Source: Verrucomicrobiota bacterium
GTDB lineage: Bacteria > Verrucomicrobiota > Kiritimatiellia > CAIQIC01 > JAGNIJ01
Reading direction: 5' to 3'
NCBI GenBank assembly: GCA_022710725.1
Contig: JAKLGK010000006.1
Span: 257,605 to 321,604, forward strand
DNA: 64,000 nucleotides
A program made the position numbers and the translations under genes. Shown here piece after piece: positions 14,581 to 33,576 of this stretch (position 1 is the first letter of the stretch; every line of letters begins with the position of its first letter). The notes beneath the pieces are model-generated. The model made no database searches and was not told the origin of the DNA. It saw nothing but the letters and a program-made list of their open reading frames with translations.

Positions 14581-15656
14581 TCCACGGGCGCCTGCGGCTC
14601 GACCTCCGAGCGGGCGCTCTCGGGCTTGGCCATGCGCTCGTACATGGCTTCCCAGTACTTGTTGAGCTGCAGGGCCTCGTTGCGGGGGATGTAGGCGGCG
14701 TCGACCAGGCCCTCGTTGAGCAGGTAGTGGAAAATCGCCTCGGCGGCGATCCGGTGCGCAATCTCGCTCGGATGCCCGTCCGCGCCGGGCAGGGTTTCCA
14801 TCCGGGTCGGCGAACGGCCCCGGAGCGAATCCAGCAGGTCCAGATAGCGGATGTTCTCGGACTGGAGGTGGGCGATGATCTTGTCGTGTGCGAACTGGAA
14901 GGGGTAGGGGGTCCGGTCCACGAAGGACAGGCAGGGCCAGATCACCACGAGGAATTCAACCTGCTGGTCGCGGCAGGCCTTGTGGAAGTCGCGCGCGGCG
15001 TCCTGGAACAGCTTCCAGCCGCTGTAGTCGTCGTCGTACAGCCGTTCGTAGTAGCGATGGAAGCCCCGCCCGCTCTTCACGTCGCCGATCTTCTTGTTGA
15101 ACCACGCCAGGGCCCGCGAGCGGCGGATGAGCGGGGCCAGCCAGCCGGTGGGCACGGGGGGCATCATCTCCGTCCGCCAGGCGCGCAGTTCCTTGTAGTT
15201 GTTGAAATTTTCCGTGTCGTTCAGGTACATGGCCAGGATCACGAGGCGCGGCCGCGTCGCCAGGGCCTCGTCCAGGAACCCGCGCTGCATGTAGGTCGAG
15301 GTCCCGCCCTTGGCGAAGACGTCCACGGCGGCCGGCGTGGCGTCCTTCTTGAGGTTGAGCAGTCGCTCCAGCCGCATGCCGAAGGTGTCGTCCGGCTGCA
15401 CGCCCTGGCCGGTCGTGAACGAGTCGCCCACGATGGCGACGCGGAGCACGTGGTTGGTGTCCCGCACCCAGGGATGGATCCGTTCGGCGTCGGAAGCGAA
15501 GTAGAACCGGCTGCGGTCGAAGAGCGGGGTCTGCTTGATGGACTCCGGCATCGGGCCGCGCAGGCGCAGCGCGAGTTCCAGCGCCGCGAGCGCGCAGAAC
15601 AGTACAAACAGCATGAGGACGACGCGCAGGATGATGGATTTGACGATGGGCTTCAT
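14577..15656 (-). CDS. SGNH/GDSL-family hydrolase with an N-terminal membrane anchor (copy 1 of a tandem pair).
   Basis: GDS block VAIVGDSFTTGQG and catalytic DxxH block ADGHPSEIAHRIAAE. There is one N-terminal TM helix and a Pro/Glu-rich C-terminal tail. The start was chosen at MKPIVKSI. Confidence 0.72.
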   Translation of the reverse strand: MKPIVKSIILRVVLMLFVLFCALAALELALRLRGPMPESIKQTPLFDRSRFYFASDAERIHPWVRDTNHVLRVAIVGDSFTTGQGVQPDDTFGMRLERLLNLKKDATPAAVDVFAKGGTSTYMQRGFLDEALATRPRLVILAMYLNDTENFNNYKELRAWRTEMMPPVPTGWLAPLIRRSRALAWFNKKIGDVKSGRGFHRYYERLYDDDYSGWKLFQDAARDFHKACRDQQVEFLVVIWPCLSFVDRTPYPFQFAHDKIIAHLQSENIRYLDLLDSLRGRSPTRMETLPGADGHPSEIAHRIAAEAIFHYLLNEGLVDAAYIPRNEALQLNKYWEAMYERMAKPESARSEVEPQAPVE

Positions 15657-15706
15657 ATTTTCTTGATTACATCCGATTGTAAGGGCGGGGGCGGCGCGCC
15701 GCAACG

Positions 15707-16789
15707 TCATTCCGGGGTCAGGGGGGCGGGCTCGGCAACCGGCTCGCCGTGTCCGGCCAGCCTGTCCGCCTCGTCCTGCTTGACCGCGGTCACATCGTTC
15801 ATGAAGGCCGACAGGATGCGCCACTGCTCCTCCGGAGACCGGCTGGCGATTGCCGGCAGGTATTCGGGATAGATCAGCTTTTCGGCCAGCAGGTACTTCA
15901 GGATCGCCTCCGCGGCGATGCGGTGCCCGATCTCGTTCGGGTGGGCATCCACCCGCGGGATGGCTTGCAGCCGTTCCGACGGCAGCCCCTTGTAGACGGG
16001 GAGCAAATCCAGATACGGTATTCCGGCGGCATCGAGTTCCTCGTGGACCTGCTCATGGATCCAGTCGAACGGATAATCATCGATGTGGCTAAGGAGCGGA
16101 AAGACCACGGCCACCATCTTGATGTTGTTCCGGCGCGTGGTCTCGGAGAAATCCTTGAGCGCCTTGGTGAAAAGCTTCCAGCCGCCGTACTCCTTGTCGA
16201 ACAGCTTGCGGTTCATTTCCAGGTAGCCGCGGCGGGCGCGGGCATCCTCCAGTTTCTGGTATACAAGCGTGGCCAGGCGCGACCAGCCCAGCGAACGAGC
16301 GAACCAGCGGGAGGGTTGATGGGGCAGGGCATCCATGCGCCATCGCGTCAGTTCCTCCTTGCGCCGGGGGTCCTCGGTATCGTTCAGGCAGATGCCGAGG
16401 ATCAGCAGTTCCGGCTTCCATGCGACGGCTTCCTCCAGGAATTTCAACTCGCCGAAGGTGCACATGCCGCCCCGCGCCCAGACACGGACCTCGGCGGGCC
16501 GTTGACCGTCGTTGAGGTTCAGGAGGCGCTCGAGCCGCGCCCCGTAGGCATCCTGGGGCTGGCTTCCGGCGCCCACGGTGATGGAGTCGCCCAGCACGGC
16601 GATGCGCAGCGCGTTCGTCGCGCCGCGGCTCCACGGGTGCATCCTGGTCTCGCCGTCGTAAAAGGAAACGGGGGGGCGATCATGACGCAGTTGCTGGTCG
16701 GGCGCCACGCGGTAGTAGGCGCGCAGGCCCAGTTCGCAGAAGGCCAAGATCATCAATAACAGAATTCCCGAGAACACGATCTTTTTCAC
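15707..16789 (-). CDS. SGNH/GDSL-family hydrolase with an N-terminal membrane anchor (copy 2, paralog of 14577-15656).
   Basis: IAVLGDSITVGAGS and VDAHPNEIGHRIAAE motifs. The protein is collinear with the neighbouring paralog over its whole length. Confidence 0.72.
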   Translation of the reverse strand: MKKIVFSGILLLMILAFCELGLRAYYRVAPDQQLRHDRPPVSFYDGETRMHPWSRGATNALRIAVLGDSITVGAGSQPQDAYGARLERLLNLNDGQRPAEVRVWARGGMCTFGELKFLEEAVAWKPELLILGICLNDTEDPRRKEELTRWRMDALPHQPSRWFARSLGWSRLATLVYQKLEDARARRGYLEMNRKLFDKEYGGWKLFTKALKDFSETTRRNNIKMVAVVFPLLSHIDDYPFDWIHEQVHEELDAAGIPYLDLLPVYKGLPSERLQAIPRVDAHPNEIGHRIAAEAILKYLLAEKLIYPEYLPAIASRSPEEQWRILSAFMNDVTAVKQDEADRLAGHGEPVAEPAPLTPE

Positions 16790-16968
16790 GCTGGTCCGTC
16801 CGGTGTGAGCATGGGGCGATTTTGTAGCGCGTCGGCGGGCATTTCACAAGAGCGAACACCCGCAACCTTGCCGATACTTCTGATGAGTCTGCGCCGGCCC
16901 GGTCCACGGATGGGCTGGAACCTCTTATGTATCCTGTAGATGAAAAGCGGAGGCCGGTCAGCATCGCC

Positions 16969-16996
16969 ATGCTCACACTTCTAGAAGTGTGAGCAT
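16969..16996. repeat. 28-bp perfect palindrome ATGCTCACACTTCTAGAAGTGTGAGCAT (copy 1 of 2).
   Basis: Read directly from the sequence. Its reverse complement is identical. It lies in a 556-bp non-coding gap upstream of the SGNH hydrolase operon. Confidence 0.9.
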
Positions 16997-17073
16997 CAGT
17001 CCGGATAGGCAATTATGAGAACTGCGTCACAAGAATTTGCATTACAGCATATAGTGTCGATTTATATTAGCAT

Positions 17074-17093
17074 CACACTTCTAGAAGTGTGAG
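17074..17093. repeat. 20-bp perfect palindrome TCACACTTCTAGAAGTGTGA (copy 2), sharing a 23-bp identical core with copy 1.
   Basis: Read directly from the sequence. It is about 100 bp from copy 1, and the intervening segment is unusually AT-rich for this genome. Confidence 0.9.
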
Positions 17094-17345
17094 CACAAGT
17101 TTACTGACGTTTTTTTACAGGAACGATCCTCACTGGAGACCGAGCCGTGCCATCGCCGCCTGTTTCCATCCCAAAAGGAGGCCGGTCGGCATAGGCGCGA
17201 TGCGTTGGCGGCATGCCCTGTCGGATGCCGGTCCGTGACGACGTCAACGTTCCCGACGATTCCCCGACCAGTATTGGCGATCGGATCCGCGGGTGAATGC
17301 CGGGGCCGGGACTCCCGTGGGCGGCCGCCGGTCGCGACGCGCGGC

Positions 17346-18503
17346 TTAGGTCGCTTTCCCGCCGGCGAGATCCTGGAACACGGTCTCGTACCGCGCCGAA
17401 ATGACCTCCCACGAGAACTGGTCGCGCGCCCGCTGCCGGCCGGCTTCGCCCAGGCGCCGGCGCTCGGTGTCGTTCCGGAGAAGAGCCGCCACCGCAGCCC
17501 GCATGGCCTCGGCATCATCCGGCTCCACCAACCGGCCCGTGACACCGTCCTCCACGGCCTCCAGGATTCCGCCGACACGCGTGGCGACGGACGGCAACCC
17601 CGCCAGGGCCGCCTCGAGGAACACGATCCCGAAGCCCTCCACGTCTCCCGGGATGTCCCGGGCCGGCAGTGCGAAGACCCTTGCCTCACGGTACAGGGCC
17701 GCCACTTCCTCGTCGCGGAGCCGGCCGGCGAGATGCACGTGGCGGGCCAGCCCCAGCTCCTGCACGCGCCGCGCGATCAGGTCGCGCCTCCGCTCATGGT
17801 GCACAAGGGAATGATGAGCGTCGTCCCCGACCACGACGTACAACACGTCGGAAAATTCCCGGACCAGCGGGGGCATCACCTGCTCCACGAACTCGAGGAC
17901 CCCCTTGCGCCGGATGAGCCGACCGACGGTCATCAGCACGCGGCGCCCGGCCACGAGGTCCGACAATTCTTTCGGCAGCGGCGGCGGGGAGACGTCGGCG
18001 GGCGGCACGAGGACGCCAGGCGGAACGACAACGATCCGCTCCGGCCGCTGCCCGGCCGCGATCAGCAGGTCGCGCGTCCGCCCGCTGTTCGCGCACAGCC
18101 GGTCGGCCCGGCCGAACAGCCAGCGGACGGCGCGGGTGTACAACCATCCGGGGTAGAGGATGTCGCTGCCGTGCGCCAGCACGACCAGCGGCCGGCGGAA
18201 CAGCCGCGAGAGCATCCATCCCGCCGGCGCGGACACGACGCTCGAGCATGCGATCACGTCCGGCCGTTCCCCGCGGCAGAGCGAAAAACCCCGGGCAAGG
18301 GAAAACAAGACATAGGCTTTCAGACCCGGCCGCGCCGCGCGCCAGGTGTCCGGTTCCGGCGGTGCGTCCTTCGCATGGGCCGTGACCACGCGGACGGCGT
18401 GGCCCCTCGCCCGCAATCCGCGGACGAGATGTTCGGCGACGTACTCGATCCCGCCCGTGACCGGCGGGTAGTTCCAGGTGAGCATCAGGATGCGCAGGCC
18501 CAT
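17346..18503 (-). CDS. Family 1 (GT4-type) glycosyltransferase.
   Basis: N-terminus MGLRILMLTWNYPPVTGGIEYV and C-terminal GFGIVFLEAALAGLPSVAT...E motifs typical of GT4. Its start abuts the stop of the upstream GT-C gene. Confidence 0.8.
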   Translation of the reverse strand: MGLRILMLTWNYPPVTGGIEYVAEHLVRGLRARGHAVRVVTAHAKDAPPEPDTWRAARPGLKAYVLFSLARGFSLCRGERPDVIACSSVVSAPAGWMLSRLFRRPLVVLAHGSDILYPGWLYTRAVRWLFGRADRLCANSGRTRDLLIAAGQRPERIVVVPPGVLVPPADVSPPPLPKELSDLVAGRRVLMTVGRLIRRKGVLEFVEQVMPPLVREFSDVLYVVVGDDAHHSLVHHERRRDLIARRVQELGLARHVHLAGRLRDEEVAALYREARVFALPARDIPGDVEGFGIVFLEAALAGLPSVATRVGGILEAVEDGVTGRLVEPDDAEAMRAAVAALLRNDTERRRLGEAGRQRARDQFSWEVISARYETVFQDLAGGKAT

Positions 18504-18504
18504 G

Positions 18505-20712
18505 TCATTCCGTTTCGTTGCGGCCGGCCGCGGCCGGCTCAATCGCCGCTTGGACCGTTTCGGTGGCAAACCATAGCGTTGTCCCGCCGGGCGCATCAAT
18601 AAAAAGGTCGAGCGGCCTGGCCGCCTGCTGGGGATCCAATATCGCGCCCGTCCAAATCCTGGATTGGGGCAGGGCGACCGCCCAGTTCGTCACGGCCCGG
18701 CCATCCTGCTCGTACCGGAAGGACACCGTTCCCTGGAAGGGGGCCGCCTTCATGCCGAGGGCCAGGTTGAACGCGCCGTAGGATCCGTGCACGGCCGGCA
18801 GGCGGAGCCGTCCGCCCGACGAAGCGGGCGCGGCCAGCGCGGCGCCGACGAACGCCGGCTCAAACCAGCGCTCCAGGGACGGGCCGCGCTGGGGGCCGGC
18901 TTCGAACCGCGCCGGCTTGCCGGCCGGGACCACCGTGTACACGAAGCCGGAGGGACCCGGTCGGTCGCCCGATACGTCGACGAGGGCCGCCCCGGGCTCC
19001 GCCGGCTTCTCGAAGATGAAGGCCTGCAGAAACCGCGCATCCTCGACGAGCCACGAAGCCAGTGTTTGTCCCCCGTCCGTCCGGACCTCGACGCGCCGCG
19101 CGGCATTCGACGGGCCATCCTTGAAATCCAGCCAGAGCACGGCCGTGTCCCCGGCGGGCAGGGTCACGCGCGCGGAGACGCTCGTGGCGGACCAGGGCCG
19201 CACGTCGTACACGCCATACCGGCCGCCGCCGAGGGCCAGCTGGAGCGGTTGGCCGTCCGGGCCCACCCGCGCCTGGACGTCATGCCGGTAACGAAGGTGG
19301 CGCGACGCCGAGTTGGCCAGGTCCCGGCGAAAGGAGCCGGGCGGGAAGCAGTCGCGCGTCAGGGGCTCCAGGTAGAAACACCGGGCGCCGCCCCCGTCCA
19401 TCCCCGCGCGCGCGGGATCGGCGGGCCGGTGCGCCAGGTGATAGATCATCGTCTCGCCGAGATGCCGGCAGATCGGCTCGATCACCACGAGATCCTCCGG
19501 CCGCACGACCGCATCGAAGTCCCGGCGGAATTGCTCCACGTCCTGACGCGTTATCCGCGGGCCCCACGGCTGAAGGGTCCAGGCCGTGCGGATGAGCCCG
19601 ACGGCCAGCAGGGCGGCGGCCAGGACGCGCGCGGGTCCGGCGATGGGACGGCGGACCAGCCGGACAGCCAGAACGGACAATTTATCGATGGCCAGGTGAA
19701 GGCCGTACGCGGCGAACGGGCAGAGCGGCAGCAGCACGGCCAGGGCGTACCGGCGGTGCGCCGTGTAGGTCGCGTACAGGAAGAGATAAGCCAGGGCGCT
19801 GAACAGGAAGAACCAGAGCGCCGCGCGGTTGCGCCGCAACCCGGCGAGGCCCAGCAAGCCGAGCAGCAGCCACGGATAGCCCAGCGCGTCCCGGAGAAAG
19901 ACGAGCAGGGCGCGCAGGGAATGGACGTAGGCGTCCCGGAAGGCCGGGGGCGGCGTGTGCAGCAGCCGCGCGCTCCACCACTGCCATTGCCCGCTGGACG
20001 GGGAGCCCACGGCCTGCCGCGCCAGGAGCCAGGTCCCGCCGGCCAGCAGCCACGGCAGGATCGCGCCGAAAAAGCACGCCCGGCGCGCGCGCCCGCTTTC
20101 CTTCCGCCGAAAGAGCAGCCACAGGTACGGGCCGATGGCCCCGCAAACCGCCGGCTCCCGCATGGCGGCCGCGATGACGAACGCGCACCCTCCGGCGAAA
20201 AACAGGCCCGGCTTCCGCCGGTCGTCCGCCAGGAGAAAAAGGAGCCACCCCGCGGCCACGAACAGGAACGACGGCGTCTCGCGAAACGCGTACAGGAGAA
20301 AGTGCGCGTTCAGGACATACCCGCGCAGGAGGATCAGCAGCGTCGCGAGCAGGCCCAGCCCGGCGGCCCGGTCGTCCCCGAAAACGCGGCGGAGAACCAG
20401 GAGATACAGGCCCAGCAGGAGGCCGGCGAGCGCGACGTTGATCCAGGCGGTGACCCACGGCCCGGCCACCCGGATCGCCAGCGCCAGGAACAGCGGCCAT
20501 CCCGGCGCGACATGCGTAAGCGCCTGGCGGAATTCCGGGGAGGACCGGTCGGCGGACAGGATCGTGCGCGCGAAAATCCTGTGCGTGGCGTCGTCCTGGC
20601 CGCTGACCGCCGTCCGGATCTGCCAAGCGGCCAGGGCCAGGATGCCCAGGGCGAACAGCCAAGCCGCCAGGGGCGCCAGGCGGGGCGCCGGCACATGAGG
20701 TTTGGGGTCCAT
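18505..20712 (-). CDS. Paralog C of the large GT-C-type membrane glycosyltransferase-like protein.
   Basis: A polytopic N-terminus (AFRETPSFLFVAAGWLLFLL, AMREPAVCG) aligns with paralog A (PFREASAFFFIFLSYGLLL, AAREPFVMAV). The C-terminal domain carries VLWLDFKDG, matching VLWLNFRD in paralog A. Confidence 0.62.
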   Translation of the reverse strand: MDPKPHVPAPRLAPLAAWLFALGILALAAWQIRTAVSGQDDATHRIFARTILSADRSSPEFRQALTHVAPGWPLFLALAIRVAGPWVTAWINVALAGLLLGLYLLVLRRVFGDDRAAGLGLLATLLILLRGYVLNAHFLLYAFRETPSFLFVAAGWLLFLLADDRRKPGLFFAGGCAFVIAAAMREPAVCGAIGPYLWLLFRRKESGRARRACFFGAILPWLLAGGTWLLARQAVGSPSSGQWQWWSARLLHTPPPAFRDAYVHSLRALLVFLRDALGYPWLLLGLLGLAGLRRNRAALWFFLFSALAYLFLYATYTAHRRYALAVLLPLCPFAAYGLHLAIDKLSVLAVRLVRRPIAGPARVLAAALLAVGLIRTAWTLQPWGPRITRQDVEQFRRDFDAVVRPEDLVVIEPICRHLGETMIYHLAHRPADPARAGMDGGGARCFYLEPLTRDCFPPGSFRRDLANSASRHLRYRHDVQARVGPDGQPLQLALGGGRYGVYDVRPWSATSVSARVTLPAGDTAVLWLDFKDGPSNAARRVEVRTDGGQTLASWLVEDARFLQAFIFEKPAEPGAALVDVSGDRPGPSGFVYTVVPAGKPARFEAGPQRGPSLERWFEPAFVGAALAAPASSGGRLRLPAVHGSYGAFNLALGMKAAPFQGTVSFRYEQDGRAVTNWAVALPQSRIWTGAILDPQQAARPLDLFIDAPGGTTLWFATETVQAAIEPAAAGRNETE

Positions 20713-20838: not shown

Positions 20839-21360
20839 ATGAGGCGCTCCTGTCAGGCCGGCGGCATAACCTGCGCGTTGCTTGCGGCGGGCTGGCTGGC
20901 GACGGCCTGGTCCGGCGAGGTCCCGCGCGTCGAGGTCGGGGGCGCGACCGTGTCGGAGGAAACGCCCGCCGTGCGGATTGTCCGGAAAATCGCGAGGCCG
21001 GCCGCCGTCGGCCGCCCCGTGGATGTCGTGGTCAGCAGCGGCGAATCCCCGCAGACGAACGGGTGGGATGTGGCGGACGGCGACCTCGAGACCGCGTGGG
21101 CGGGCCGCGCCGGCGAAAACGGCTGGTGGCTGGCGCTGGTCTACGAGCCCCCTCTGAAGATGACGGACATCGAACTGCTCCTGGCGCCTTCCTCGACGAC
21201 CAACGTCATGATCCTCGGCAGCGCGGATGCGCTGGACTGGATCGAACTGCCGGCGGCCCCGGAGTCGGGCCTGGACCGGATCCGCTATCTCTGGATCGTC
21301 TTCGAGCCGGATGCCTCCGGACGCCGGCCCGTGGTCCTGGAAGTCAAACCCATCCCGTAG
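20839..21360 (+). CDS. Small secreted protein, possibly an F5/8-type-C (discoidin/CBM32-like) carbohydrate-binding fold.
   Basis: Signal-peptide-like N-terminus (ALLAAGWLATAWSG). A GWDVADGDLETAWAG motif resembles the DGxxxTxW block of discoidin domains. Confidence 0.45.
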   Translation: MRRSCQAGGITCALLAAGWLATAWSGEVPRVEVGGATVSEETPAVRIVRKIARPAAVGRPVDVVVSSGESPQTNGWDVADGDLETAWAGRAGENGWWLALVYEPPLKMTDIELLLAPSSTTNVMILGSADALDWIELPAAPESGLDRIRYLWIVFEPDASGRRPVVLEVKPIP

Positions 21361-21410: not shown

Positions 21411-22670
21411 ATGCGAGTAACGGCTGTGCTCAAGGAATGCGTGCGGCAGGAAGTGGAGGCGCGCGCCTCCCCGTCGCGGCAACGCCGTCTCCAGTCCGCG
21501 CGGCTGGCGCGCCTGGTGGCCCGCGCCGCCGTGCGCGTGCCGTTCTATCGCGAGGCCTTCGCCGCCGCCTCGCTCGACCCGGCGATCGTGCGAGGTTTGG
21601 ACGACCTGGCGCGGATTCCCGTCACCCGCAAGCTGGAATACCGCCGCTGCCCGCCCGGGGAGCGGTTGGCCGCGGGCGTGCGTCCCGAGGACTGCCGCGT
21701 GGAGCACACGAGCGGGTCCACGGGGATCCCGCTGAACGTCTACCTCTCGGAAGGCGAGCAAGCCCAGCGCTCGGCGCTCTGGCTGCGCGCGCGGCTGCGG
21801 TGCGGATTGTGGCCCTGGCGGCGGCACCTCCTGGTCGGCTATTACCAGCCCCCGCCCGTGCCGTGGTTCCTGCGCCGGAGACGGATCCACGCGACGGCCG
21901 CCGAGGCCTGCGCGATCCTCGGGCATTTCCGGCCCCAGGTAATCGGCGCCTATACCTCGCAGCTGCTCCTCCTGGCCGTGGAACTCCAGCGCCGCGGCAT
22001 TCCGCCGCCGCGGCCCCGGGTGCTGCGCACGGGCGGCGAGACGCTGTCCCCGGCGGCGCGGCAACGGCTGGAACAGTTCTTCGGGGCGCCGGCGCGGGAT
22101 TTTTACGCGGCCGTCGAGTTCGGCCTCATCGGCTCCTCCTGCCCGGCGCGGGGCGGCTACCATCTTGCCTCGGGCGACCTGCTGGTGGAAATCGTGCGGG
22201 ACGGCCGCCCGGCGGCGCCGGGCGAGGAGGGGGAAGTCCTGGTCACCTCGCTCGTGGCGCACGCCATGCCGCTGATCCGGTACGAAATCGGCGACGTCGG
22301 CGCGCTCGCGCCCCTGGAGTCCTGTCCCTGCGGAAATCCCTTTCCGCGCCTGGCCGGCCTGTCGGGCCGCTCGGAGGATATGATCGTGCTGCCGGGCGGC
22401 CGCCGCGCCTCGCCGCGCCTGGCGGCCATCCCGTTCTGGGAAAACACCAGCATCCTCCAGTACCGCGTGACCCAGCGCGCCGTGGGCGAGTTCGAGGTGG
22501 AGGTGGTGCCCGACGGACCGCTCGACCCCGGGCTGGCCGACCGCGTGCGGAGCTATTTTCGCGAGCACTTCGAGGCCGCGCGCACGGACATCCGCGTGCG
22601 CGACCGGATCGATCCCGATCCGCAGGGCAAGCTGCGGAAGGTCGTCGTGCTGGCGTCAGACGGCCGGTGA
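21411..22670 (+). CDS. PaaK-like adenylate-forming enzyme (phenylacetate-CoA ligase / CapK / F390-synthetase family).
   Basis: The TSGSTGIPLNVYL P-loop-like motif is typical of the PaaK family, and the overall ~420-aa layout fits. The start is at MRVTAVLKE. Confidence 0.68.
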   Translation: MRVTAVLKECVRQEVEARASPSRQRRLQSARLARLVARAAVRVPFYREAFAAASLDPAIVRGLDDLARIPVTRKLEYRRCPPGERLAAGVRPEDCRVEHTSGSTGIPLNVYLSEGEQAQRSALWLRARLRCGLWPWRRHLLVGYYQPPPVPWFLRRRRIHATAAEACAILGHFRPQVIGAYTSQLLLLAVELQRRGIPPPRPRVLRTGGETLSPAARQRLEQFFGAPARDFYAAVEFGLIGSSCPARGGYHLASGDLLVEIVRDGRPAAPGEEGEVLVTSLVAHAMPLIRYEIGDVGALAPLESCPCGNPFPRLAGLSGRSEDMIVLPGGRRASPRLAAIPFWENTSILQYRVTQRAVGEFEVEVVPDGPLDPGLADRVRSYFREHFEAARTDIRVRDRIDPDPQGKLRKVVVLASDGR

Positions 22671-24272
22671 TCCCGCGCGGAAACGGTCCCAGTAAACCGA
22701 CGGGTCCTGCGCGACGCCGTTGACCCGCAATTCGACGTGGAGGTGCGGGTAGTCGTAGTCGCCCAGCCCGCGCGGGATGCCCGTGCGGCCGGAGTAGCCG
22801 ATGATCTCCCCCATGGCCACGGGGCCGCGCCGGCGGACGATCCGGTCGAGGTGGGCGTACAGGCTGACCGTGTTGGTGAAATGCCGGATGCGCACGGCCC
22901 GCCCGTACGCGCCATTCCAGCCCGCCCGCCGGATCTCGCCGTCCGCCATCGCGCGGACCGGCGTGCCGGGCTCGGCCGGCAGATCGATGCCTTCGTGGCG
23001 CCGGTCGGCGATCCGGTACGCGCCGAATGCGCCCACCGCCCGCGGCGCGGGCATGGCCTCGATCGGAGGGGCGAACCACGGCCGGCCGAGGCGCCGGATG
23101 ACGTCGCCGAGCGCGAGCTGGTTGGACCCCTTGAACAGCGCGACGTCGCCGGGCCGGAGTTCATCTTCCAGCCGGGCGAGCAGCTCGAACTTGCTGTCCG
23201 TCTGCGCCGTGCGCTCCGCCGGGAAGCCCGCCTCAACGGCGCCCTGAAGGATGAACTCCGAGAGCGGCGCGTACCCGAACAGCCGCTGGATGCCGGGGAA
23301 CGCGCGGGCCAGCCGGCGCCCGAGTTCGCGGTGCAGGTCCGGGCCGCGCTCGCCCAGCTCGAGCATGCTGCCGAGCACCACGACCTTGCGGCCGTCCAGC
23401 AGGTGCATCGCCTCCAGCGCCGCCCATGCGGCCTCGGGGTTGGAGCTGTAGGTGTCGTCGAGGACCGTCCACTCGCGGTTCGTTCCGACGCTCACGCGGG
23501 ACGGCGCCGGCCGGAACCGGGCCAGCCCGCGCCGCATCGCCTCGGCGTCCAGGCCGAAGAGCGACGCGCAGGAGGCGGCCGCGAGCAGGGGATACACGGC
23601 GTGGCGACCCAGCAGTTCCGATTCGATCCGCGCCAGGACGCGGCCTTCACGGACCAGGTCGAACCGCACGCCGCGCGCGTCGGCCTCCACGTTCCGCGCC
23701 CGGAAATCCGCCTCCTGTTCAACGCCGAACGTCTTCGCCCGCGGATCGCTCCGCAGCGTCCCCAGCAGGTCGTCGTCGGCATTGACGAGGAGCGTGCCGC
23801 CGGGTTTGAGCGCGCCGAGGAGCGCCTTCTTCTGTTCGAACACGCCCTCGCGACTGTGCAGCCATTGCAGGTGGGTATGGCCGATCATCGTGAGGATCAG
23901 CACGTCCGAGGCGACGGCGGCGTTCCAGCGCGGGGCGTTGGAGGCGCTTTGGATGCCGGCCTCCAGGACCAGGATCTGCCGGCGCCGCCGGGCGCCGAGC
24001 CGGAAGACGAACCGGTGCTGGTGGCAGTCGATATTGTCGTTGTCCCGCGTGCCCACCGTCTCGCATCGCTCCGCGAGCAGGCTCTGCAGCAGCAGGCACG
24101 TCGTCGTCTTGCCGCTGCTGCCGCTGATGAGAATGACGGGGACATCGGAGCGGTACGCCAGCCAGGCGCGCGTCGCCGCGCGCAGCAGCGGCCCGCCGCC
24201 CGGAATCCAGCCGGAGACGAGGCCGGCGGCTTTTCTCGCGCCCGCCCGCCAACCGGTTCCCGCGCCGTTCAT
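22656..24272 (-). CDS. Fusion protein of a MurF-like Mur-ligase (central and C-terminal domains) with a C-terminal M23/LytM metallopeptidase domain.
   Basis: Mur-ligase P-loop ILISGSSGKTTT and the MurF-type motif LDDTYSSNPEAA. These are followed in the same frame, with no stop, by an M23 domain with intact HEGIDL (HxxxD) and HLHVEL (HxH) zinc motifs. The start at MNGAGTG abuts the stop of the upstream pyruvyl transferase. Confidence 0.68.
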   Translation of the reverse strand: MNGAGTGWRAGARKAAGLVSGWIPGGGPLLRAATRAWLAYRSDVPVILISGSSGKTTTCLLLQSLLAERCETVGTRDNDNIDCHQHRFVFRLGARRRRQILVLEAGIQSASNAPRWNAAVASDVLILTMIGHTHLQWLHSREGVFEQKKALLGALKPGGTLLVNADDDLLGTLRSDPRAKTFGVEQEADFRARNVEADARGVRFDLVREGRVLARIESELLGRHAVYPLLAAASCASLFGLDAEAMRRGLARFRPAPSRVSVGTNREWTVLDDTYSSNPEAAWAALEAMHLLDGRKVVVLGSMLELGERGPDLHRELGRRLARAFPGIQRLFGYAPLSEFILQGAVEAGFPAERTAQTDSKFELLARLEDELRPGDVALFKGSNQLALGDVIRRLGRPWFAPPIEAMPAPRAVGAFGAYRIADRRHEGIDLPAEPGTPVRAMADGEIRRAGWNGAYGRAVRIRHFTNTVSLYAHLDRIVRRRGPVAMGEIIGYSGRTGIPRGLGDYDYPHLHVELRVNGVAQDPSVYWDRFRAGSPAV

Positions 24273-25507
24273 GGCCCGCTCCCTGCGCCGGCGGCGCGGC
24301 GCGATAAGGATCCTGACCGGGCGTCGCGGACCAGGTCGGCATAGCCGCTCTGGCACTCCGCCGCCAGGGGCGCCCAGCGCGCGGCCTGCTCCGACCGGAT
24401 TTCCTGCCCATGCCCGTGAAGCCGCGCCAGCTTCCCGAGCAGGAGATCCCCGCCGCCGGGCCCGGCGGCCGCGGCGATGTCCACGAGCTGTTCTTCGAGA
24501 CCGAGCCGCTCGAACAGGTTGCTGCTCTTGCGGACGTACCCGATCCCCAGGGTCGGGACGTTCATGCCGAGGGCCAGGATGGCGCTGTGGAGGCGCACCC
24601 CGACGAAAAGATCGCACAGGCCGGTGAGCGCCTTGATCCGCCGGGCCGGGATGTCCAGGTTCAGGATATGCGAGGGCAGGCGAAGCCGCCGCCCCAGGTC
24701 CAGCGATTCCAGGTCGTCGCCCTCCCAGGGGACGGCGTACATCGGGAAAAAAAGCAGGCGGAGCCGCCGGCCCTCGGAAAACCGGCCGAGGGCGCCGGCC
24801 AGGTTGTGCAGCAACTGCTCGTGGGTGGGCGGGGCCTCCGGCCGCCGGCCGGTCAGTCTCCATTTCCACTGGAGCGGAAAGAAACGGCGACCGATGTGGA
24901 ACCAGCGCCGCAGCCCGATCCCGATCCGGACCTCGTCCGGCCGAATCGGGACGCCCTGGTGCTCCAGTTCCGCGCGCGCCTCGGATTCGGCCGCGGGCTG
25001 GAGCCCCACGGCAGGATCCGGCAGGACCCGGATCGGCGGCGGGGGACGGGCCCATTGCCGGACCCACTCCGCCGAATCGTTGTCCCGCGCCGCGACGCCG
25101 TCGAGCTGGCGGATCGCCTGCCTCGCGAAGCACCGGCCCCACGCGGTGTCAATGGGGCCGATGCCGATCCCGCAGCCGATGATCGGGCAGCGCGTGCGCC
25201 GTCGCAGGGCCCGGAGCACGAAGGCCCAGTAGACGTTCTTGACCTTGCTCGAATCGTCCTGCAGGAGGTGCCCGCCGCCCCAGAGGACCAGTTCGAGGTC
25301 GCGCAGCAGCGTCGCGTTCTTCAGCAGCCGCGAAACGGAGGAGGCGGCGACCTCCACGCCCCACTCTGCGCGGTCCGCTTCGGGGGTGCGGGACACGACG
25401 GCGATGCGGGCGGCCGGATCGGCGGCCCGCAGGAAGTCCACCAGGGCCGCGCGGATCGCGCGGTCCCCGCGATTATGGCTCGTATCTCCGCCCAGGATCA
25501 GGATCAC
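24269..25507 (-). CDS. Polysaccharide pyruvyl transferase family protein (CsaB/WcaK-like).
   Basis: The N-terminus MILILGGDTSHNRGDRAIRAALVDFL and a size of ~410 aa are typical of the PS_pyruv_trans family. Confidence 0.65.
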   Translation of the reverse strand: MILILGGDTSHNRGDRAIRAALVDFLRAADPAARIAVVSRTPEADRAEWGVEVAASSVSRLLKNATLLRDLELVLWGGGHLLQDDSSKVKNVYWAFVLRALRRRTRCPIIGCGIGIGPIDTAWGRCFARQAIRQLDGVAARDNDSAEWVRQWARPPPPIRVLPDPAVGLQPAAESEARAELEHQGVPIRPDEVRIGIGLRRWFHIGRRFFPLQWKWRLTGRRPEAPPTHEQLLHNLAGALGRFSEGRRLRLLFFPMYAVPWEGDDLESLDLGRRLRLPSHILNLDIPARRIKALTGLCDLFVGVRLHSAILALGMNVPTLGIGYVRKSSNLFERLGLEEQLVDIAAAAGPGGGDLLLGKLARLHGHGQEIRSEQAARWAPLAAECQSGYADLVRDARSGSLSRRAAGAGSGP

Positions 25508-25510
25508 GGT

Positions 25511-26641
25511 TCAGGTCCCCGTGTTCGACAACGCTTCGCGGTAGCGGCGCCAGGCCGCCGACCAGTCATGCTCCATCGCGGCGCGGCGCGCGGCGGCGCC
25601 CAGCCGTTTCCGCAGGCCCGGGTCGCGGAGCCGGTCCAGGGCCGCGCGGATCGCGTCCGGGCGGCCGGGCTCGACCAGCAGCGCGTTCTCGCCGTCCCTC
25701 AACACGGAGGGGATACCCCCGACGGGCGTCGCGATCACGGCCAGGCCCGAGGCCATGGCCTCGAGCAACGCCAGCGGCAGGCCCTCCTGCAGCGAGGGCA
25801 ACGCGAACACGTCGGCGCCCTGCAGTCGCGCCGGCATGTCGGCCGGCGACACGGCGCCCGCAAACTCGACGCGGTCCTGCATCCCGCGCGAGGCCGCCAG
25901 CGCCCGCAATTCCGCCTCCTGCGGGCCGGTCCCGCAGAGGGCCAACCGCTCTTCGCCGGCCAGCGCGGCGACCAGGTGGCGGAGCCCCTTCCGCTCGATC
26001 AACTGGGCCGCCGCGATCACGCGCAGCGGGGCGTCCCCGGCCGGCCGCGGCCCGGCCGGGCGGAACAGTTCGGTGTCCACGCCGTTCGGTATGACGGAGA
26101 TGGACCCGCCGGGCCAGGTCCGGAGCGCCAGGTCGCGCAGCGAGTCGCTCACGGCGATGACGCGGTGGGCGTCGCGCCAGACCCGGCGGACCACCGGCTT
26201 GAGGGCGGCGTACAGGAGGCCGAACCGTTCGGGCTGGTAGCCGGGGACGTCCGAGCCGTGCAGCACGACGGCGTAGGGTATCCCGTGCCGCCGTTTCAGG
26301 CGCCGGGCCAGCAGGCCCGCCGGGAAGGAGAAATGCGCCAGCACGCGATCCGGCGGCGGGCCCGCAAACCGGTCGACGGCCCGGCGCGCGGCGAGGTAGA
26401 AGCGGCCGAGTTCCGCGGCCGTGTGCCGGGTCCACTCCTTCTTGGGGGCGCGGATGCGCCGGATGGCCGCGCCGTCGCGCGTCTCCTCCGCGGGCAGTCG
26501 TCCGCCGAGGTCGGAGGTCAGCACGTCCACGGCCCAGCCGTCGCGCGCGGCCTCGCGGGCGAGATACCCGGCGGCCAGTTCCGCGCCGCCGTGATAGGGG
26601 GGAAATCCGTGGCAGATCACCAGGAGGCGCGGGTTACTCAT
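25511..26641 (-). CDS. Family 1 (GT4-type) glycosyltransferase.
   Basis: RLLVICHGFPPYHGGAELAAGYLAREA near the N-terminus and a C-terminal LPSLQEGLPLALLEAMASGLAVIAT...E GT4 motif. Confidence 0.8.
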   Translation of the reverse strand: MSNPRLLVICHGFPPYHGGAELAAGYLAREAARDGWAVDVLTSDLGGRLPAEETRDGAAIRRIRAPKKEWTRHTAAELGRFYLAARRAVDRFAGPPPDRVLAHFSFPAGLLARRLKRRHGIPYAVVLHGSDVPGYQPERFGLLYAALKPVVRRVWRDAHRVIAVSDSLRDLALRTWPGGSISVIPNGVDTELFRPAGPRPAGDAPLRVIAAAQLIERKGLRHLVAALAGEERLALCGTGPQEAELRALAASRGMQDRVEFAGAVSPADMPARLQGADVFALPSLQEGLPLALLEAMASGLAVIATPVGGIPSVLRDGENALLVEPGRPDAIRAALDRLRDPGLRKRLGAAARRAAMEHDWSAAWRRYREALSNTGT

Positions 26642-27563
26642 CCCCGTTTTTTCCGCGTTGCTGTTCGAGTTCCCAGAAGAGGCTGTTGTGAGAACTGATT
26701 TCCTTGCGCAGGCTGGCGATCTGGTCCGCGAGCAGCCCGAACAGGAACAGGATCACGCCGGCCAGGATGGCGAGGATCGCGCCGCCGACGATCTTCAGGC
26801 GGAAGGCCATGATCTCGTAGAGCTGGTATACGGCGCCGACGGTCATCAGCGCCACGGCCGGCACGCCGAGGACGCGCAGGGGATCGAACAGCATCACCAG
26901 CCGGAGCGCCAGCAGCACGGCCTTGATGCCGTCGCTGAAAATGCGGACCGAGCTCTTGCCGACGCGCGGCCCGCAGTGGACGGGCACGAAGACGTAGGAG
27001 TGGCGGCTCTTGATGACGAACATCAGCGAGGTGATGGAAAACGAGAACCCCTCCGGCAGCAGGTCCAGCATGCGCATGAACAGCAGGCGCCGCCCGGCGC
27101 GCAGGCCGCAGTTGAGGTCGGGGATTTTCCGGCCCGCCAGGAACTGGCAAACGTGCTGCAGCAGCCACTTGCCGGGCTTCCGGACGAGCGGGATGCCGGC
27201 GCCGGGAGGCCGCGCGCCGAAGACGCATTCGTGCCGCTCGAGCTCCTCCAGCAGCCTCGGCAGGTCGGCGACATCATGCTGACCGTCGCTGTCGAAGAAG
27301 AGCACGTTCCGCGCCTGGGTAGCCAGGATGCCGGTTTTCAGCGAGGCCCCGTATCCGCGGTTCGAGGAGTGCCGCCGGACGATCACCCGTTCGCCCAACC
27401 CCGCCAGCACCTTGTCCGTGCCGTCGTCGGAGCCGTCGTCCACCGCGATGATTTCCATGTCGCGGTTTTCGGCGAAGCGGACGAGGGCTTCCAGTACGGG
27501 CCCCACCGCTTCCCGCTCGTTGAACACGGGCACGATCACGGCCAGATGACTCGATCGCTTCAT
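26634..27563 (-). CDS. Family 2 glycosyltransferase of the polyprenyl-phosphate sugar synthase type (ArnC/GtrB/DPM1-like), with C-terminal TM helices.
   Basis: LAVIVPVFNEREAV...IIAVDDGSDDGTD...FDSDGQHD motifs plus two C-terminal hydrophobic helices. Confidence 0.8.
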   Translation of the reverse strand: MKRSSHLAVIVPVFNEREAVGPVLEALVRFAENRDMEIIAVDDGSDDGTDKVLAGLGERVIVRRHSSNRGYGASLKTGILATQARNVLFFDSDGQHDVADLPRLLEELERHECVFGARPPGAGIPLVRKPGKWLLQHVCQFLAGRKIPDLNCGLRAGRRLLFMRMLDLLPEGFSFSITSLMFVIKSRHSYVFVPVHCGPRVGKSSVRIFSDGIKAVLLALRLVMLFDPLRVLGVPAVALMTVGAVYQLYEIMAFRLKIVGGAILAILAGVILFLFGLLADQIASLRKEISSHNSLFWELEQQRGKNGDE

Positions 27564-27707: not shown

Positions 27708-29078
27708 ATGAACACGTGCACGCTTAAAAAGGGCATGAATATACCGCTGGGCGGGGCGCCGGAGGCCGTTCTGGCCGAGGGGGGGCCCGCGGCGCGAATC
27801 ACCCTTTACCCGAACGAGTTTGAGGGGATCAAGCCCCGGCCCGCGGTCAAGGTCGGCGACGCGGTGAAGCGCGGCACCATCCTATATTATAGTAAGAGGC
27901 ACGCCGCCCTCACATTCCGCTCGCCGGCCGCGGGAACCGTCGAGGAACTTGCGCTGGGGCATCGCCGCATGCTGGAGCGCATCGTGATCCGGTTCGGCGC
28001 GTCGGACGACGTGGAGCCGCTGTCCCGCTTCGAGGCCGGGCGGATCGGGAGCTTGTCCCGCGAGCAGATTCTGGCGGCGCTGCTGGATACGGGCTATCTC
28101 GCCTTGCTGAAGCAGAGGCCGTTCTCCCGCATTCCCGACCCGGCCGCCCGGCCAAAATCCATTTTTGTCAACGCCATGAACACGGCGCCGTTCCAGCCGG
28201 ACGCGGCCGTGATCGTCCGCGGACAGGAAACCGCATTCCAGGCCGGCCTGGACGCGATGACCCGGCTCACGGCCGGGAAGGTGCGGCTGTGCCTGCCCGG
28301 CGGCCGGGCCGACCTGCCCCCGGCGCTGACCGCCGCGAAGAACGTGGAGATACATTACTTCGCAGGCCCGCATCCCGCGGGCAATTCCAGCGTGCATATC
28401 CACCACCTCGACCCGATTCGCCCGCACGACGTGGTCTGGACGGTCAGGGCCGTGGACCTCGTGCAGATCGGGCGGCTCCTGCTCGACGGCGCCATGCCGC
28501 CGGACCGCGTCGTCACGCTGGCGGGGCCCGGCGTGCGCGAGGGCGAACGTCGCTATTATCGGGTCCGGCTCGGCGCGCCGATCGAGGCGCTGCTCCAGGG
28601 CCGCCTCGCGCCCGGGGAGCAGCGGATCGTCGCGGGCGACGTGCTGGCCGGCAAGCGCGTGGCGCCGGACAGCGCGCTCCGGTTCCAGGATTCGGGAATC
28701 TGCGTCCTGCCCGAGGGCCGGGAGCGGCATTTCCTGGGCTGGATCGCGCCGGGCTGGAACCGGTTCAGCTGGTCGCCGACTTTCCTCTCCACCTGGCTGC
28801 GGCGCGGGGCGCAGTGGGCGCTGGACACGAGCCGCCGCGGCAGTCCGCGGGCCATGGTGCTGACCGGCCTGTACGACCGCTACGTTCCGATGCGGATCAT
28901 GACCGATTACCTCCTGCGCGCGGTGCTGGCGCGCGACACGGACGAGGCCGTGAAACTGGGCCTCCTGGAGGTCGATCCCGAGGACTTCGCGCTGTGCGCG
29001 TTCGCCTGCCCGTCGAAGATGGACCTCGTCGGCATCATCCGCCGCGGCCTGGCCGAGGCGGAGAAGGAAGGGATTTGA
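27708..29078 (+). CDS. nqrA: Na+-translocating NADH:quinone oxidoreductase subunit A.
   Basis: N-terminus TLKKGMNIPLGGAPE, the expected length and the operon position. Confidence 0.88.
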   Translation: MNTCTLKKGMNIPLGGAPEAVLAEGGPAARITLYPNEFEGIKPRPAVKVGDAVKRGTILYYSKRHAALTFRSPAAGTVEELALGHRRMLERIVIRFGASDDVEPLSRFEAGRIGSLSREQILAALLDTGYLALLKQRPFSRIPDPAARPKSIFVNAMNTAPFQPDAAVIVRGQETAFQAGLDAMTRLTAGKVRLCLPGGRADLPPALTAAKNVEIHYFAGPHPAGNSSVHIHHLDPIRPHDVVWTVRAVDLVQIGRLLLDGAMPPDRVVTLAGPGVREGERRYYRVRLGAPIEALLQGRLAPGEQRIVAGDVLAGKRVAPDSALRFQDSGICVLPEGRERHFLGWIAPGWNRFSWSPTFLSTWLRRGAQWALDTSRRGSPRAMVLTGLYDRYVPMRIMTDYLLRAVLARDTDEAVKLGLLEVDPEDFALCAFACPSKMDLVGIIRRGLAEAEKEGI

Positions 29079-29158
29079 ACGGAAGGCGCGAAGGGCGCGA
29101 AGACGGAAGAGCAGGAGCAGGAGCAAGAAGCTGAATCCTGTACCCTAGAAATGCTTCG

Positions 29159-30367
29159 ATGAAAATTGCGGAACAGATGCTGGACAGGATGCGTCCGCTG
29201 TTTGCGCCGGGCAGGCCGCTGCATCTTTTCCATGCCGTGTTCGACGCGACGGACACCTTCCTGCTTACCCCGCCGGACGTGACGGACGGGCCGCCGCACG
29301 TCCGGGACGCGGTGGACATGAAGCGGGTGATGATGTTCGTGGTCATCGCCCTGATCCCCTGCACACTGTTTGGCGTCTTCAACGCTGGGTATATGTACAA
29401 CACGGTCAACGGGGTGCCCGGGGCTGGCTTCGTGCAGCACGTTCTCCGGGGCCTGCGCCTCGTGCTTCCGATCATCATCACGTCGTACGCCGTCGGCGGG
29501 TTCTGGGAGGTCGTATTCGCCACGGTGCGCAAGCACGAGATCAACGAGGGCTTCCTGGTGACCGGCCTGCTGTTCCCGCTGACCCTGCCTCCGACGATCC
29601 CGCTCTGGCAGGTGGCGGTGGGGATCTCGTTCGGGGTGGTGATCGGCAAGGAGATCTTCGGCGGCACGGGGTTCAACGTGCTCAACCCGGCGCTGACCGC
29701 GCGGGCGTTCCTCTACTTTGCATACCCGGCGCAGATCTCGGGCGACAAGGTCTGGGCCGGCGTGGCCGACTGGGCGCACGTGGCCGACGGGTTCACGGGC
29801 GCGACTTCGCTGGCCGCGGCCAAGGCGGCGCCGGCCGGCGCGAACGCGATGGAGTTCCTCAAGGAATCCGGCTTCACGCTCCAGCGCATGATCGTCGGCC
29901 TGGAGCCCGGCAGCATCGGCGAGACGTCCGCGATCGCGGTGGCGCTCGGCCTGCTGGTCCTCGTGCTGACGGGCATCGGCTCCTGGCGGATCATCGCGGG
30001 CGGCCTGCTGGGCCTGGCGGTGACGGGCACGCTGCTCAACCTCCTCCCCGAGGCGACTCGCCTGGCGAACCCGGTGCTCCAGTTGCCCTTCTACTTCGAC
30101 TTGGTCATGGGCGGCGTTTTCTTCGGCATCGTGTTCATGGCCACCGACCCGGTTTCCGCGGCGGCTACGCCCGCGGGCAAGTGGATCTACGGGTTCCTGA
30201 TCGGCCTGATGACCGTCGTCATCCGCGCGTTCAATCCCGCGTACCCGGCGGGGAACATGCTGGCCATCCTGTTCTGCAACGTGACGGCCCCGCTGCTGGA
30301 CCATATCGTGCTGCAGGCGCACATCCGCGGACGGCAACGCTACCTGGCGAGGATGAACCATGGCTAA
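29159..30367 (+). CDS. nqrB: Na+-NQR subunit B.
   Basis: A polytopic membrane protein with a conserved NqrB/RnfD-like core. It is second in the operon. Confidence 0.88.
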   Translation: MKIAEQMLDRMRPLFAPGRPLHLFHAVFDATDTFLLTPPDVTDGPPHVRDAVDMKRVMMFVVIALIPCTLFGVFNAGYMYNTVNGVPGAGFVQHVLRGLRLVLPIIITSYAVGGFWEVVFATVRKHEINEGFLVTGLLFPLTLPPTIPLWQVAVGISFGVVIGKEIFGGTGFNVLNPALTARAFLYFAYPAQISGDKVWAGVADWAHVADGFTGATSLAAAKAAPAGANAMEFLKESGFTLQRMIVGLEPGSIGETSAIAVALGLLVLVLTGIGSWRIIAGGLLGLAVTGTLLNLLPEATRLANPVLQLPFYFDLVMGGVFFGIVFMATDPVSAAATPAGKWIYGFLIGLMTVVIRAFNPAYPAGNMLAILFCNVTAPLLDHIVLQAHIRGRQRYLARMNHG

Positions 30368-31714: not shown

Positions 31715-31722
31715 GGGCGAAC

Positions 31723-32337: not shown

Positions 32338-32346
32338 GCGGAAAAC

Positions 32347-33573: not shown

Positions 33574-33576
33574 CGC

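Follow-up and report, generated by a model that had tools for sequence, protein, structure and literature searches.

A conserved fusion of a MurF-like ligase lacking the uridine-binding domain to an M23 peptidase domain, predicted to be cytoplasmic

Mur ligases and M23 peptidases, both of them drug targets, belong to the best-studied enzymes of the cell wall. They are viewed as acting in opposing directions and as being separated by the membrane. The N-terminal domain of a Mur ligase binds the uridine of its substrate. In MurF, the pocket for the UDP moiety is distinct from a large one that accommodates ATP, the tripeptide, and D-Ala-D-Ala (PMC10618370). Here, we describe the computational analysis of a gene that joins the two kinds of enzyme in one polypeptide. 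The gene lies in a 64,000-nucleotide stretch of DNA, hereafter the window, from a Verrucomicrobiota bacterium of the class Kiritimatiellia (assembly GCA_022710725.1, contig JAKLGK010000006.1, forward-strand positions 257,605 to 321,604), and it encodes a MurF-like ligase without the N-terminal domain, a linker, and an M23 peptidase domain (Table 1).

Several described systems approach this arrangement. A Mur ligase core without the N-terminal domain is known from MurT, which forms the lipid II isoglutaminyl synthase with GatD, and whose substrate is membrane-linked rather than linked to uridine diphosphate (UDP) (PMC6085368). The fusion resembles MurT/GatD in combining such a core with a second, hydrolytic activity at the C-terminal side. 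However, the partner of MurT is a glutaminase on a separate chain, whereas that of the fusion is a fused metallopeptidase, and MurT is without the active-site His (PMC6085368), which the fusion retains. Peptidoglycan recycling provides another comparison. LdcA and LdcV, which are not homologous to each other, trim recycled tetrapeptides in the cytoplasm, a step that is needed because UDP-N-acetylmuramic acid (MurNAc)-tetrapeptide is not a substrate of MurF (10.1101/771642), while Mpl takes tri-, tetra-, and pentapeptides (PMC3060825). The logic that we propose below for the fusion is the same as in this LdcA/LdcV, Mpl, and MurF trio, i.e., cytoplasmic trimming of the stem before D-Ala-D-Ala is added back (10.1101/771642; PMC3060825). 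In contrast, the trio consists of separate proteins, neither LdcA nor LdcV belongs to M23, and the MurF acceptor there is UDP-bound. Finally, Mur ligases are known that are likewise fused to another cell-wall enzyme, as in MurE-MurF (NF008896; PDB 8f5d), MurC-Ddl (NF011171), and MurF-Alr (NF008897), but these fusions join two synthetic steps, whereas the fusion in the window joins a synthetic step to a hydrolytic one. Neither a ligase-M23 fusion nor a cytoplasmic M23 enzyme was found in the full-text literature that we searched or in the 2022 review of the M23 family, so the statement in a preliminary description of this DNA, made by a model from the sequence, that the architecture is not a described family holds for these sources.

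The gene is a single open reading frame (ORF) of 538 codons with no internal stop. Its ATG overlaps the stop of the pyruvyl-transferase gene upstream by 4 bp (ATGA), and a GGGAG box resembling a Shine-Dalgarno sequence lies before it. We have set the start at position 24272 and rejected an 828-residue version beginning with a GTG at 25142, because the extension runs through the pyruvyl-transferase gene in a different reading frame and the homologues all have 517 to 580 residues. Three Pfam domains are matched, each above its gathering cut-off: Mur_ligase_M (PF08245; E 2e-26, 93.6 bits), Mur_ligase_C (PF02875; E 1.7e-12, 48.7 bits), and Peptidase_M23 (PF01551; E 5e-24, 84.8 bits, covering profile positions 2–96 of 96). 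By these matches, the fusion is a member of both the Mur ligase superfamily and peptidase family M23. The preliminary description had likewise seen one ORF running without a stop from the ligase into the M23 domain, and the four motifs that it quoted are all in the 538-residue translation: ISGSSGKTTT (residues 49–58), LDDTYSSNPEAA (271–282), HEGID (426–430), and HLHVEL (510–515). In the AlphaFold2 model of the protein, the mean predicted local distance difference test score (pLDDT) is 89.3 and the predicted template modeling score is 0.86. The pLDDT drops below 50 only at the ends and in residues 411–424 of the linker, which are probably flexible, and the N-terminal 40 residues are modeled as two helices (8–22 and 24–40) with pLDDT values of 51–70.

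Since the window derives from a metagenome-assembled genome (MAG), and solely for that reason, we considered whether a truncated murF-like gene and an adjacent M23 gene might have been joined by a sequencing or assembly error. We found no support for such an artefact, which is exceedingly improbable. A product identical over all 538 residues is found on 16 contigs that come from independent NCBI, JGI, and ENA assemblies (including GCA_035453605.1, two JGI metagenomes, and ERZ761563), and the same three domains occur in homologues P0002–P0006, which are 89, 79, 76, 49, and 46% identical to it. The fusion recurs in homologues of 44–89% identity, and also in archaeal bins. Six aligned fusions are invariant in the P-loop (G51–T58), E104, H134, K148, D272, D273, Y275, P279, MLELG, and KGS of the ligase and in H426, D430, H474, H510, and H512 of the M23 domain, and much of the linker is also kept, down to homologues of 44% identity. 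When the window gene was compared with three orthologues, the ratio of nonsynonymous to synonymous substitution rates (dN/dS) was 0.17–0.25 in the ligase, 0.09–0.40 in the linker, and 0.12–0.31 in the M23 domain, with a peak of 0.26–0.82 in the N-terminal 40 residues. These values indicate that purifying selection acts on both halves. The G+C content at third codon positions (GC3) is even across the halves (ligase 0.92, M23 0.94). Together, the 16 contigs, the distant homologues, the conserved linker, dN/dS, and GC3 rule out a frameshift or a chimera.

As for the ligase half, the preliminary description had assigned it to the MurF type rather than to FolC or CapB, and had stated that it lacks the N-terminal domain that binds UDP-MurNAc-tripeptide. 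Both points are borne out. The top NCBIfam match is murF (TIGR01143), the best sequence match in the PDB is Pseudomonas aeruginosa MurF (4cvk, aligned over residues 44–393), and the top Foldseek match of the AlphaFold2 model in the PDB is Acinetobacter baumannii MurF (4qf5, rmsd 2.0 over 377 columns). An affinity to FolC, CapB, or cyanophycin synthetase was rejected, the MurF, MurE, MurD, and MurC models being in the lead, with FolC not among the best 25 NCBIfam matches and cyanophycin synthetase at 44 bits. Membership in MurT was rejected as well: no MurT model is among the same best 25 matches, so that MurT is not a family-level homologue, and the C-terminal domain is PF02875, not DUF1727. 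The N-terminal domain is missing, since the TIGR01143 alignment begins at profile position 62 (and spans positions 62–417 of 418), PF01225, the Mur ligase N-terminal domain, is not matched in the Pfam scan, and the start codon abuts the upstream gene.

With MurF, the fusion shares the central and C-terminal domains, the ATP/Mg motifs, and the DDxY..NP, MLELG, and KGS blocks of the C-terminal domain. The catalytic residues G51–T58, E104, H134, and K148 align with those of P. aeruginosa MurF, Lys148 falling where the carbamylated lysine lies. In other respects, the fusion departs from MurF. It lacks the uridine-binding domain, its score of 201.6 bits is below the TIGR01143 cut-off of 288.6 bits, it lies outside a division and cell wall (dcw) cluster, and it has an M23 domain appended. 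The acceptor-side loops GNxNNxIGxP and GEI of MurF are swapped for the clade-specific RDNDNIDCHQHR and NAxRW, and the MurF block DDxYNANP reads DDTYSSNP, in which D, D, Y, N, and P are retained while NA has become SS (NAN to SSN). By score, N-terminal domain, and genomic location, the fusion is therefore not MurF proper. A protein of Paenibacillus harenae, P0011 (L007 10001–11101), is a MurF-like ligase of 366 residues with neither the N-terminal domain nor an M23 domain; its acceptor-loop and DDSFSSNP motifs resemble those of the window protein, and its gene context is uninformative. P0011 suggests that UDP-independent derivatives of MurF, annotated as MurF, make up a wider family.

The M23 half appears to be that of an active enzyme. 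Its zinc ligands, already described as preserved in HEGID and HLHVEL, and its catalytic His (H426, D430, H474, H510, and H512 together) are invariant in nine of nine aligned domains, and the best PDB and NCBIfam matches of residues 413–524 are M23 peptidoglycan peptidases (Neisseria 3slu and 6muk). The fusion shares the fold, HxxxD, HxH, and the catalytic His with known M23 peptidases (NMB0315/3slu, NGO1686-type 6muk, ShyC, MepM, DipM, Csd3, and Pgp3). However, these peptidases are exported or membrane-anchored and act on the sacculus, whereas the fusion has no export signal, a shortened N-terminal loop, and an insertion. Every fused M23 domain has this insertion of 7–8 residues, ending in YDY[PT] immediately before HxH, where the closest ordinary M23 proteins have the canonical STGPHLHFE and no YDY[PT]HLH. 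None of the fusions contains a signal-like or membrane-spanning hydrophobic segment, the highest 19-residue Kyte-Doolittle mean being at most 1.75 and falling in buried ligase helices, while in the same comparison ordinary M23 proteins carry N-terminal anchors. The fusions have no export signal, and a Mur ligase depends on ATP; a cytoplasmic location is therefore predicted for the whole protein. Its M23 domain is thus predicted to work in the cytoplasm, which is atypical for the family; an extracytoplasmic location is typical of M23 but not strictly defining.

The nearest stand-alone relatives of the fused M23 domain, at 37–47% identity, are a large family of M23 proteins of ~161 residues with N-terminal anchors (P0383–P0502), of which the named ones come from Candidatus Omnitrophota. 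They share the insertion before HxH and do not have the YDY signature. A profile built from the fused M23 domains returned no fusion protein among its best 120 matches, although the fusions were expected to score at the top. This is probably an effect of the word-index selection of candidates, and absence from that list is not evidence of absence.

Taking the two halves together, we propose that the fusion is a soluble cytoplasmic enzyme with two activities, which cuts back the C-terminal end of a peptidoglycan-type stem ending in D-Ala and then extends it again, the carrier being other than UDP. This is the reading that we favor, tentatively and with somewhat less than even confidence. In this scheme, the M23 domain would remove the terminal residue or residues of an unusable stem, e.g., a recycled tetrapeptide ending in a single D-Ala, and the cleavage would expose the carboxylate of the preceding residue. 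Among M23 enzymes are DD-carboxypeptidases as well as L,D- and D,L-endopeptidases, and the bonds that they cut are D-Ala-meso-diaminopimelate, D-Ala-D-Ala, L-Ala-D-Glu, Gly-Gly, and D,L bonds (PMC9662197; PMC8269130). The MurF-derived ligase would activate this carboxylate with ATP as an acyl phosphate and join a new dipeptide or amino acid to it, most likely D-Ala-D-Ala or a close equivalent. With the uridine-binding domain lost and the acceptor-side loops remodeled, UDP-MurNAc-tripeptide is probably not the acceptor. Candidates are a peptide, either free or recycled, and, by analogy with MurT, an intermediate linked to a membrane lipid; in Kiritimatiellia the latter could be a glycan produced by the co-transcribed GT2, GT4 (glycosyltransferase families 2 and 4), and pyruvyl-transferase genes. 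Of the two functions put forward in the preliminary description, a remodelling enzyme that swaps terminal residues agrees better with the evidence than a peptide decoration on a non-peptidoglycan polymer and comes close to our best explanation, in which the order of the reactions, the bond cleaved, the acceptor, and the incoming residue are inferred.

This proposal supposes that both domains act on the same molecule. The M23 domain might instead be a peptide-binding or targeting module that replaces the N-terminal domain, or a VanX-like D-Ala-D-Ala dipeptidase that controls the dipeptide pool. The predicted flexibility of the linker (pLDDT below 50), which makes no fixed coupling of the active sites evident, and the lack of the N-terminal domain in most fusions would be compatible with this idea, and non-catalytic, degenerate M23 folds are known (PMC9662197). 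Degenerate regulatory M23 domains, however, normally lose their catalytic residues, whereas here all five are unchanged even between very distant members, with purifying selection acting on the domain, and in one member the N-terminal domain and the M23 domain are present together. We consider such a role improbable.

In its distribution, the fusion is extremely rare. A word-seeded HMMER search of 5.8 billion proteins gave six fusion clusters, to which an exhaustive profile search of 1.84 billion cluster representatives added P0116, the fragment P0117, P0118, and P0147. In total, there are about ten sequence clusters, from Kiritimatiellia, Binatia, and DPANN archaea. A scan for the motif YDY[PT]HLH[FV]ExR, back-translated, in one genome for each of 185,579 species found seven loci: two in Woesearchaeota bins and one each in a Nanoarchaeota, a Methanosarcinales, a Binatia, a "Verrucomicrobia" MAG, and a contig labeled Enterobacteriaceae. 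Three of these correspond to proteins found by the other searches, the Methanosarcinales locus being P0147, the "Verrucomicrobia" MAG P0003, and the Enterobacteriaceae-labeled contig, with 73% G+C, P0116. The last (L011; CAZGUU010000061.1) is titled "uncultured Enterobacteriaceae bacterium" and has the P0116 fusion beside acyl-CoA dehydrogenase and P450 genes; it is probably mis-binned or mislabeled.

The relatives in archaeal bins offer the best clue to function. P0264 and P0147 are full-length MurF proteins fused to M23 that retain the MurF N-terminal domain, and P0264 passes the TIGR01143 cut-off (369.6 versus 288.6 bits). Both are encoded in the order MurC/Mpl-like ligase, FemAB-like protein, MurF-M23 fusion, MraY, with MurG, MurB, and MurA near, as well as a monofunctional transglycosylase (Transgly), a flippase-like gene, and a Wzy_C gene. 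This gene order, with a MurC/Mpl-like ligase and MraY, places the fusion in the murF slot of a peptidoglycan cluster. Since P0264 passes the murF cut-off within such a cluster, an M23 domain of the YDY type is predicted to work beside a genuine MurF in the cytoplasm. In the 20 kb that were read of the archaeal-bin cluster, there is no MurD, MurE, or Ddl, and these genes might form a murein pathway by which a DPANN archaeon scavenges peptides. On a contig binned as Nanoarchaeota, a fusion that lacks the N-terminal domain, like the window protein, converges on ddl and an Acetyltransf_6/FemAB-like gene; before it, in the same orientation, lie genes for a B12-binding radical-SAM enzyme and a methyltransferase.

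The same 20 kb contain the monofunctional Transgly gene and no penicillin-binding protein (PBP) transpeptidase, which would favor another possible function, namely that the ligase adds D-Ala-D-Ala and the M23 domain, as a cytoplasmic DD-carboxypeptidase, removes the last D-Ala, producing tetrapeptide donors for L,D-transpeptidases. Such transpeptidases require tetrapeptide donors (PMC13344953), and the M23 enzymes Csd3 and Pgp3 are known DD-carboxypeptidases (PMC9662197). Making tetrapeptides in this way would, however, cost ATP and D-Ala for no obvious gain, since a bacterium can do the step in the periplasm, and it leaves the loss of the UDP-binding domain unexplained. We think this function about as improbable as the alternative roles of the M23 domain considered above, and return to trimming and re-extension as the preferred reading.

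How the bacterial and archaeal fusions are related affects how far the archaeal contexts can inform that reading. The N-terminal domain has been lost in most fusions. The bacterial fusions, which are without it, form one clade on the M23 domain (95 of 100 bootstraps) and are monophyletic on the ligase, and their nearest neighbor in a rough neighbor-joining tree of the ligase is P0011 of P. harenae. In the M23 tree, all fused domains and one stand-alone Woesearchaeota M23 protein group beside the Omnitrophota-type proteins with 31 of 100 bootstraps, whereas in the ligase tree, which is rough and poorly resolved, archaeal and bacterial fusions are not one clade. The stand-alone Woesearchaeota protein (L009), an M23 with the YDY insertion, has uninformative neighbors. 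Because the YDY signature is shared, the fusion may plausibly have arisen once, with later transfer and loss of the N-terminal domain. On either history, the sequences indicate that this M23 subtype has stayed joined to MurF-type ligases across very distant lineages.

We next consider the genomic context in Kiritimatiellia, where the fusion is the last of four minus-strand genes (GT2, GT4, pyruvyl transferase, and fusion) whose ends overlap or abut, the set being divergent from the nqr operon. The preliminary description had placed the gene in an exopolysaccharide-like operon with GT2, GT1, and pyruvyl-transferase genes rather than with mur genes. All of these genes are present on the minus strand, although the supposed GT1 is a GT4, and there is indeed no mur or dcw gene in the 64-kb window. 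A housekeeping MurF is expected elsewhere in the source genome, because Kiritimatiella glycovorans, the cultured reference of the phylum, has a peptidoglycan wall with diaminopimelic acid and possibly ornithine (PMC5148204). The four-gene arrangement recurs in Kiritimatiellae relatives at 76% identity and the link to the pyruvyl transferase in the relative at 89%; L004, L005, and L021–L025 show the fusion with its upstream pyruvyl transferase. The convergent gene for a PaaK/CapK-like enzyme, whose 3′ end overlaps that of the fusion by 15 bp, is a neighbor kept in the Kiritimatiellia relatives. A promoter and terminator scan of the operon gave nothing above background.

This setting is the basis for a reading in which the N-less ligase joins a dipeptide or a single amino acid to a carboxylate of the operon's lipid-linked oligosaccharide, with the M23 domain binding the attached peptide or trimming it. 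This carboxylate could belong to a uronic acid or to a pyruvyl ketal, the ketal being similar in its chemistry to the MurNAc lactyl group. Besides the overlapping stops and starts of the four genes and their retention in Kiritimatiellia relatives, the conserved neighbor would supply a second carboxylate-activating enzyme; the loss of the uridine-binding domain and the rebuilt acceptor loops fit a new acceptor that is not UDP-bound; and MurT offers a precedent for a Mur ligase that has no N-terminal domain and works on lipid-linked substrates (PMC6085368). However, the GT2-GT4-pyruvyl-transferase context is confined to Kiritimatiellia relatives of 76–89% protein identity, and synteny among such genomes says little. 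It is absent around the fusions of Binatia and around P0116 and P0118, genes for peptidoglycan or ddl accompany the archaeal relatives, and no flippase, polymerase, or priming transferase was recognised beside the operon. The peptide decoration suggested in the preliminary description is hence not well supported, and we judge it unlikely, though still a serious competitor and less improbable than the two readings of the M23 domain discussed above. Trimming and re-extension of a peptide stem, by comparison, is suited by the unrelated neighbors outside Kiritimatiellia, which would be those of a self-contained activity on common metabolites.

Nevertheless, several points weigh against trimming and re-extension. 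The review of the M23 family reports L,D-carboxypeptidase activity for none of its enzymes (PMC9662197). The Kiritimatiellia gene is translationally coupled to the pyruvyl transferase in a glycan operon, and a role purely in recycling leaves this coupling unexplained. With SSN in place of the NAN of MurF, D-Ala-D-Ala as the incoming group is not assured. A common origin of bacterial and archaeal fusions is weakly supported, given 31 of 100 bootstraps and ligase halves that stand apart, and a transfer of function from the DPANN contexts is therefore by analogy.

A conserved and selected fusion without an export signal would imply that cytoplasmic peptide trimming is tied directly to ligation of the D-Ala-D-Ala type, and what should surprise specialists is that a selected, predicted cytoplasmic M23 domain with an apparently complete catalytic site is joined to a MurF derivative. 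In its boldest form, which we put forward as a long shot, this would be the first cytoplasmic M23 metallopeptidase, in one chain with a UDP-independent MurF derivative, serving either the salvage or repair of dead-end tetrapeptide stems, free or lipid-linked, to pentapeptides or, in Kiritimatiellia, the building and trimming of a peptide on the carboxylate of a pyruvylated lipid-linked sugar, i.e., a murein-like glycan without MurNAc. If salvage or repair is true, it would be a new branch of peptidoglycan recycling, and it would explain how some lineages manage without LdcA, including genome-reduced DPANN archaea with a cluster of a MurC/Mpl-type ligase and a MurF-M23 fusion. If decoration of a pyruvylated glycan is true, it would mean a new kind of peptide-bearing envelope polymer.

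Table 1. Positions of the fusion gene, its parts and neighbors in the window, and of related loci elsewhere (aa, amino acid residues)
Feature	Location	Strand	Remarks
Whole fusion gene: MurF-like ligase without N-terminal domain, linker, M23 peptidase	22656..24272	(-)	Single 538-aa ORF, three Pfam domains
N-terminal 40 aa: short basic helical extension and helix before the P-loop strand	24153..24272	(-)	In place of the ~80-aa MurF N-terminal (uridine-binding) domain
Mur_ligase_M, ATP-binding central domain, aa 49–235	23568..24128	(-)	P-loop GSSGKTTT 24099–24122; Mg-binding Glu104 in LEAG; His134; Lys148 at the carbamylated-lysine position
Mur_ligase_C, aa 262–383	23124..23489	(-)	DDTYSSNP at 23436–23459; GSMLELGERG; KGS
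Inter-domain linker, aa 396–424 (LGRPWFAPPIEAMPAPRAVGAFGAYRIADR)	23001..23087	(-)	Sequence kept among bacterial fusions
Peptidase_M23, aa 425–524	22701..23000	(-)	HEGID 22983–22997; His474 in YAHL; HLH 22737–22745 after the family-specific insertion IPRGLGDYDY
GT2 glycosyltransferase, first operon gene	26634..27563	(-)	Divergent from nqrA
GT4 (Glycos_transf_1) glycosyltransferase, same operon	25511..26641	(-)	
CsaB/WcaK-type polysaccharide pyruvyl transferase, directly upstream of fusion	24269..25507	(-)	PF04230 E 5.5e-30; TIGR03609 CsaB 132 bits, below cut-off
PaaK/CapK-like adenylate-forming enzyme, 419 aa, convergent	21411..22670	(+)	NCBIfam DVU_1553-family AMP ligase E 4e-38 and PaaK E 1e-30, both below cut-off
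Peptidoglycan cluster with MurF-M23 fusion	L016 7620–17399, JGI contig Ga0209542_10000847; also L017, L018, L010		Bins Woesearchaeota or Methanosarcinales
MurF-M23 fusion without N-terminal domain, Nanoarchaeota-binned contig JAHJQL010000047.1 (L015 460–7962)	4247–5851	(-)	Converges on Acetyltransf_6/FemAB-like gene and ddl
Neighbors of Binatia fusions	L001–L003		Rotamase_2 and DUF3604 upstream, Trans_reg_C/TPR gene downstream; uninformative
Neighbors of P0116	L011		Acyl-CoA dehydrogenase, cytochrome c, P450; uninformative
Neighbors of P0118	L019		ABC exporters; uninformative

Elsewhere in the window, positions 6544–20712 form an extended envelope-glycan region with two GT2, two GT4, and two SGNH/GDSL hydrolase genes, together with large proteins without a family match (11893–14580, 18505–20712, 9872–10843, and 10907–11866); no flippase, polymerase, or priming transferase is recognisable in it. 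Housekeeping genes (27708–34659, 40672–44205, 53388–55550, and 59293–63149) comprise a complete nqrABCDEF with apbE, a B12-dependent metH, a NuoF-like flavoprotein, and the [FeFe]-hydrogenase maturases HydE, HydG, and HydF. Between the glycan region and the PaaK/CapK-like gene, an ORF of 173 residues on the plus strand (20839–21360) has a signal-like N-terminus and no Pfam or NCBIfam match, and the minus-strand ORF that overlaps it starts only at 20712. Since its product is 68% identical to the C-terminal part of an 819-residue GDSL/BACON/F5_F8-type-C protein at locus L004, it is probably a real small secreted protein of the carbohydrate-binding type.

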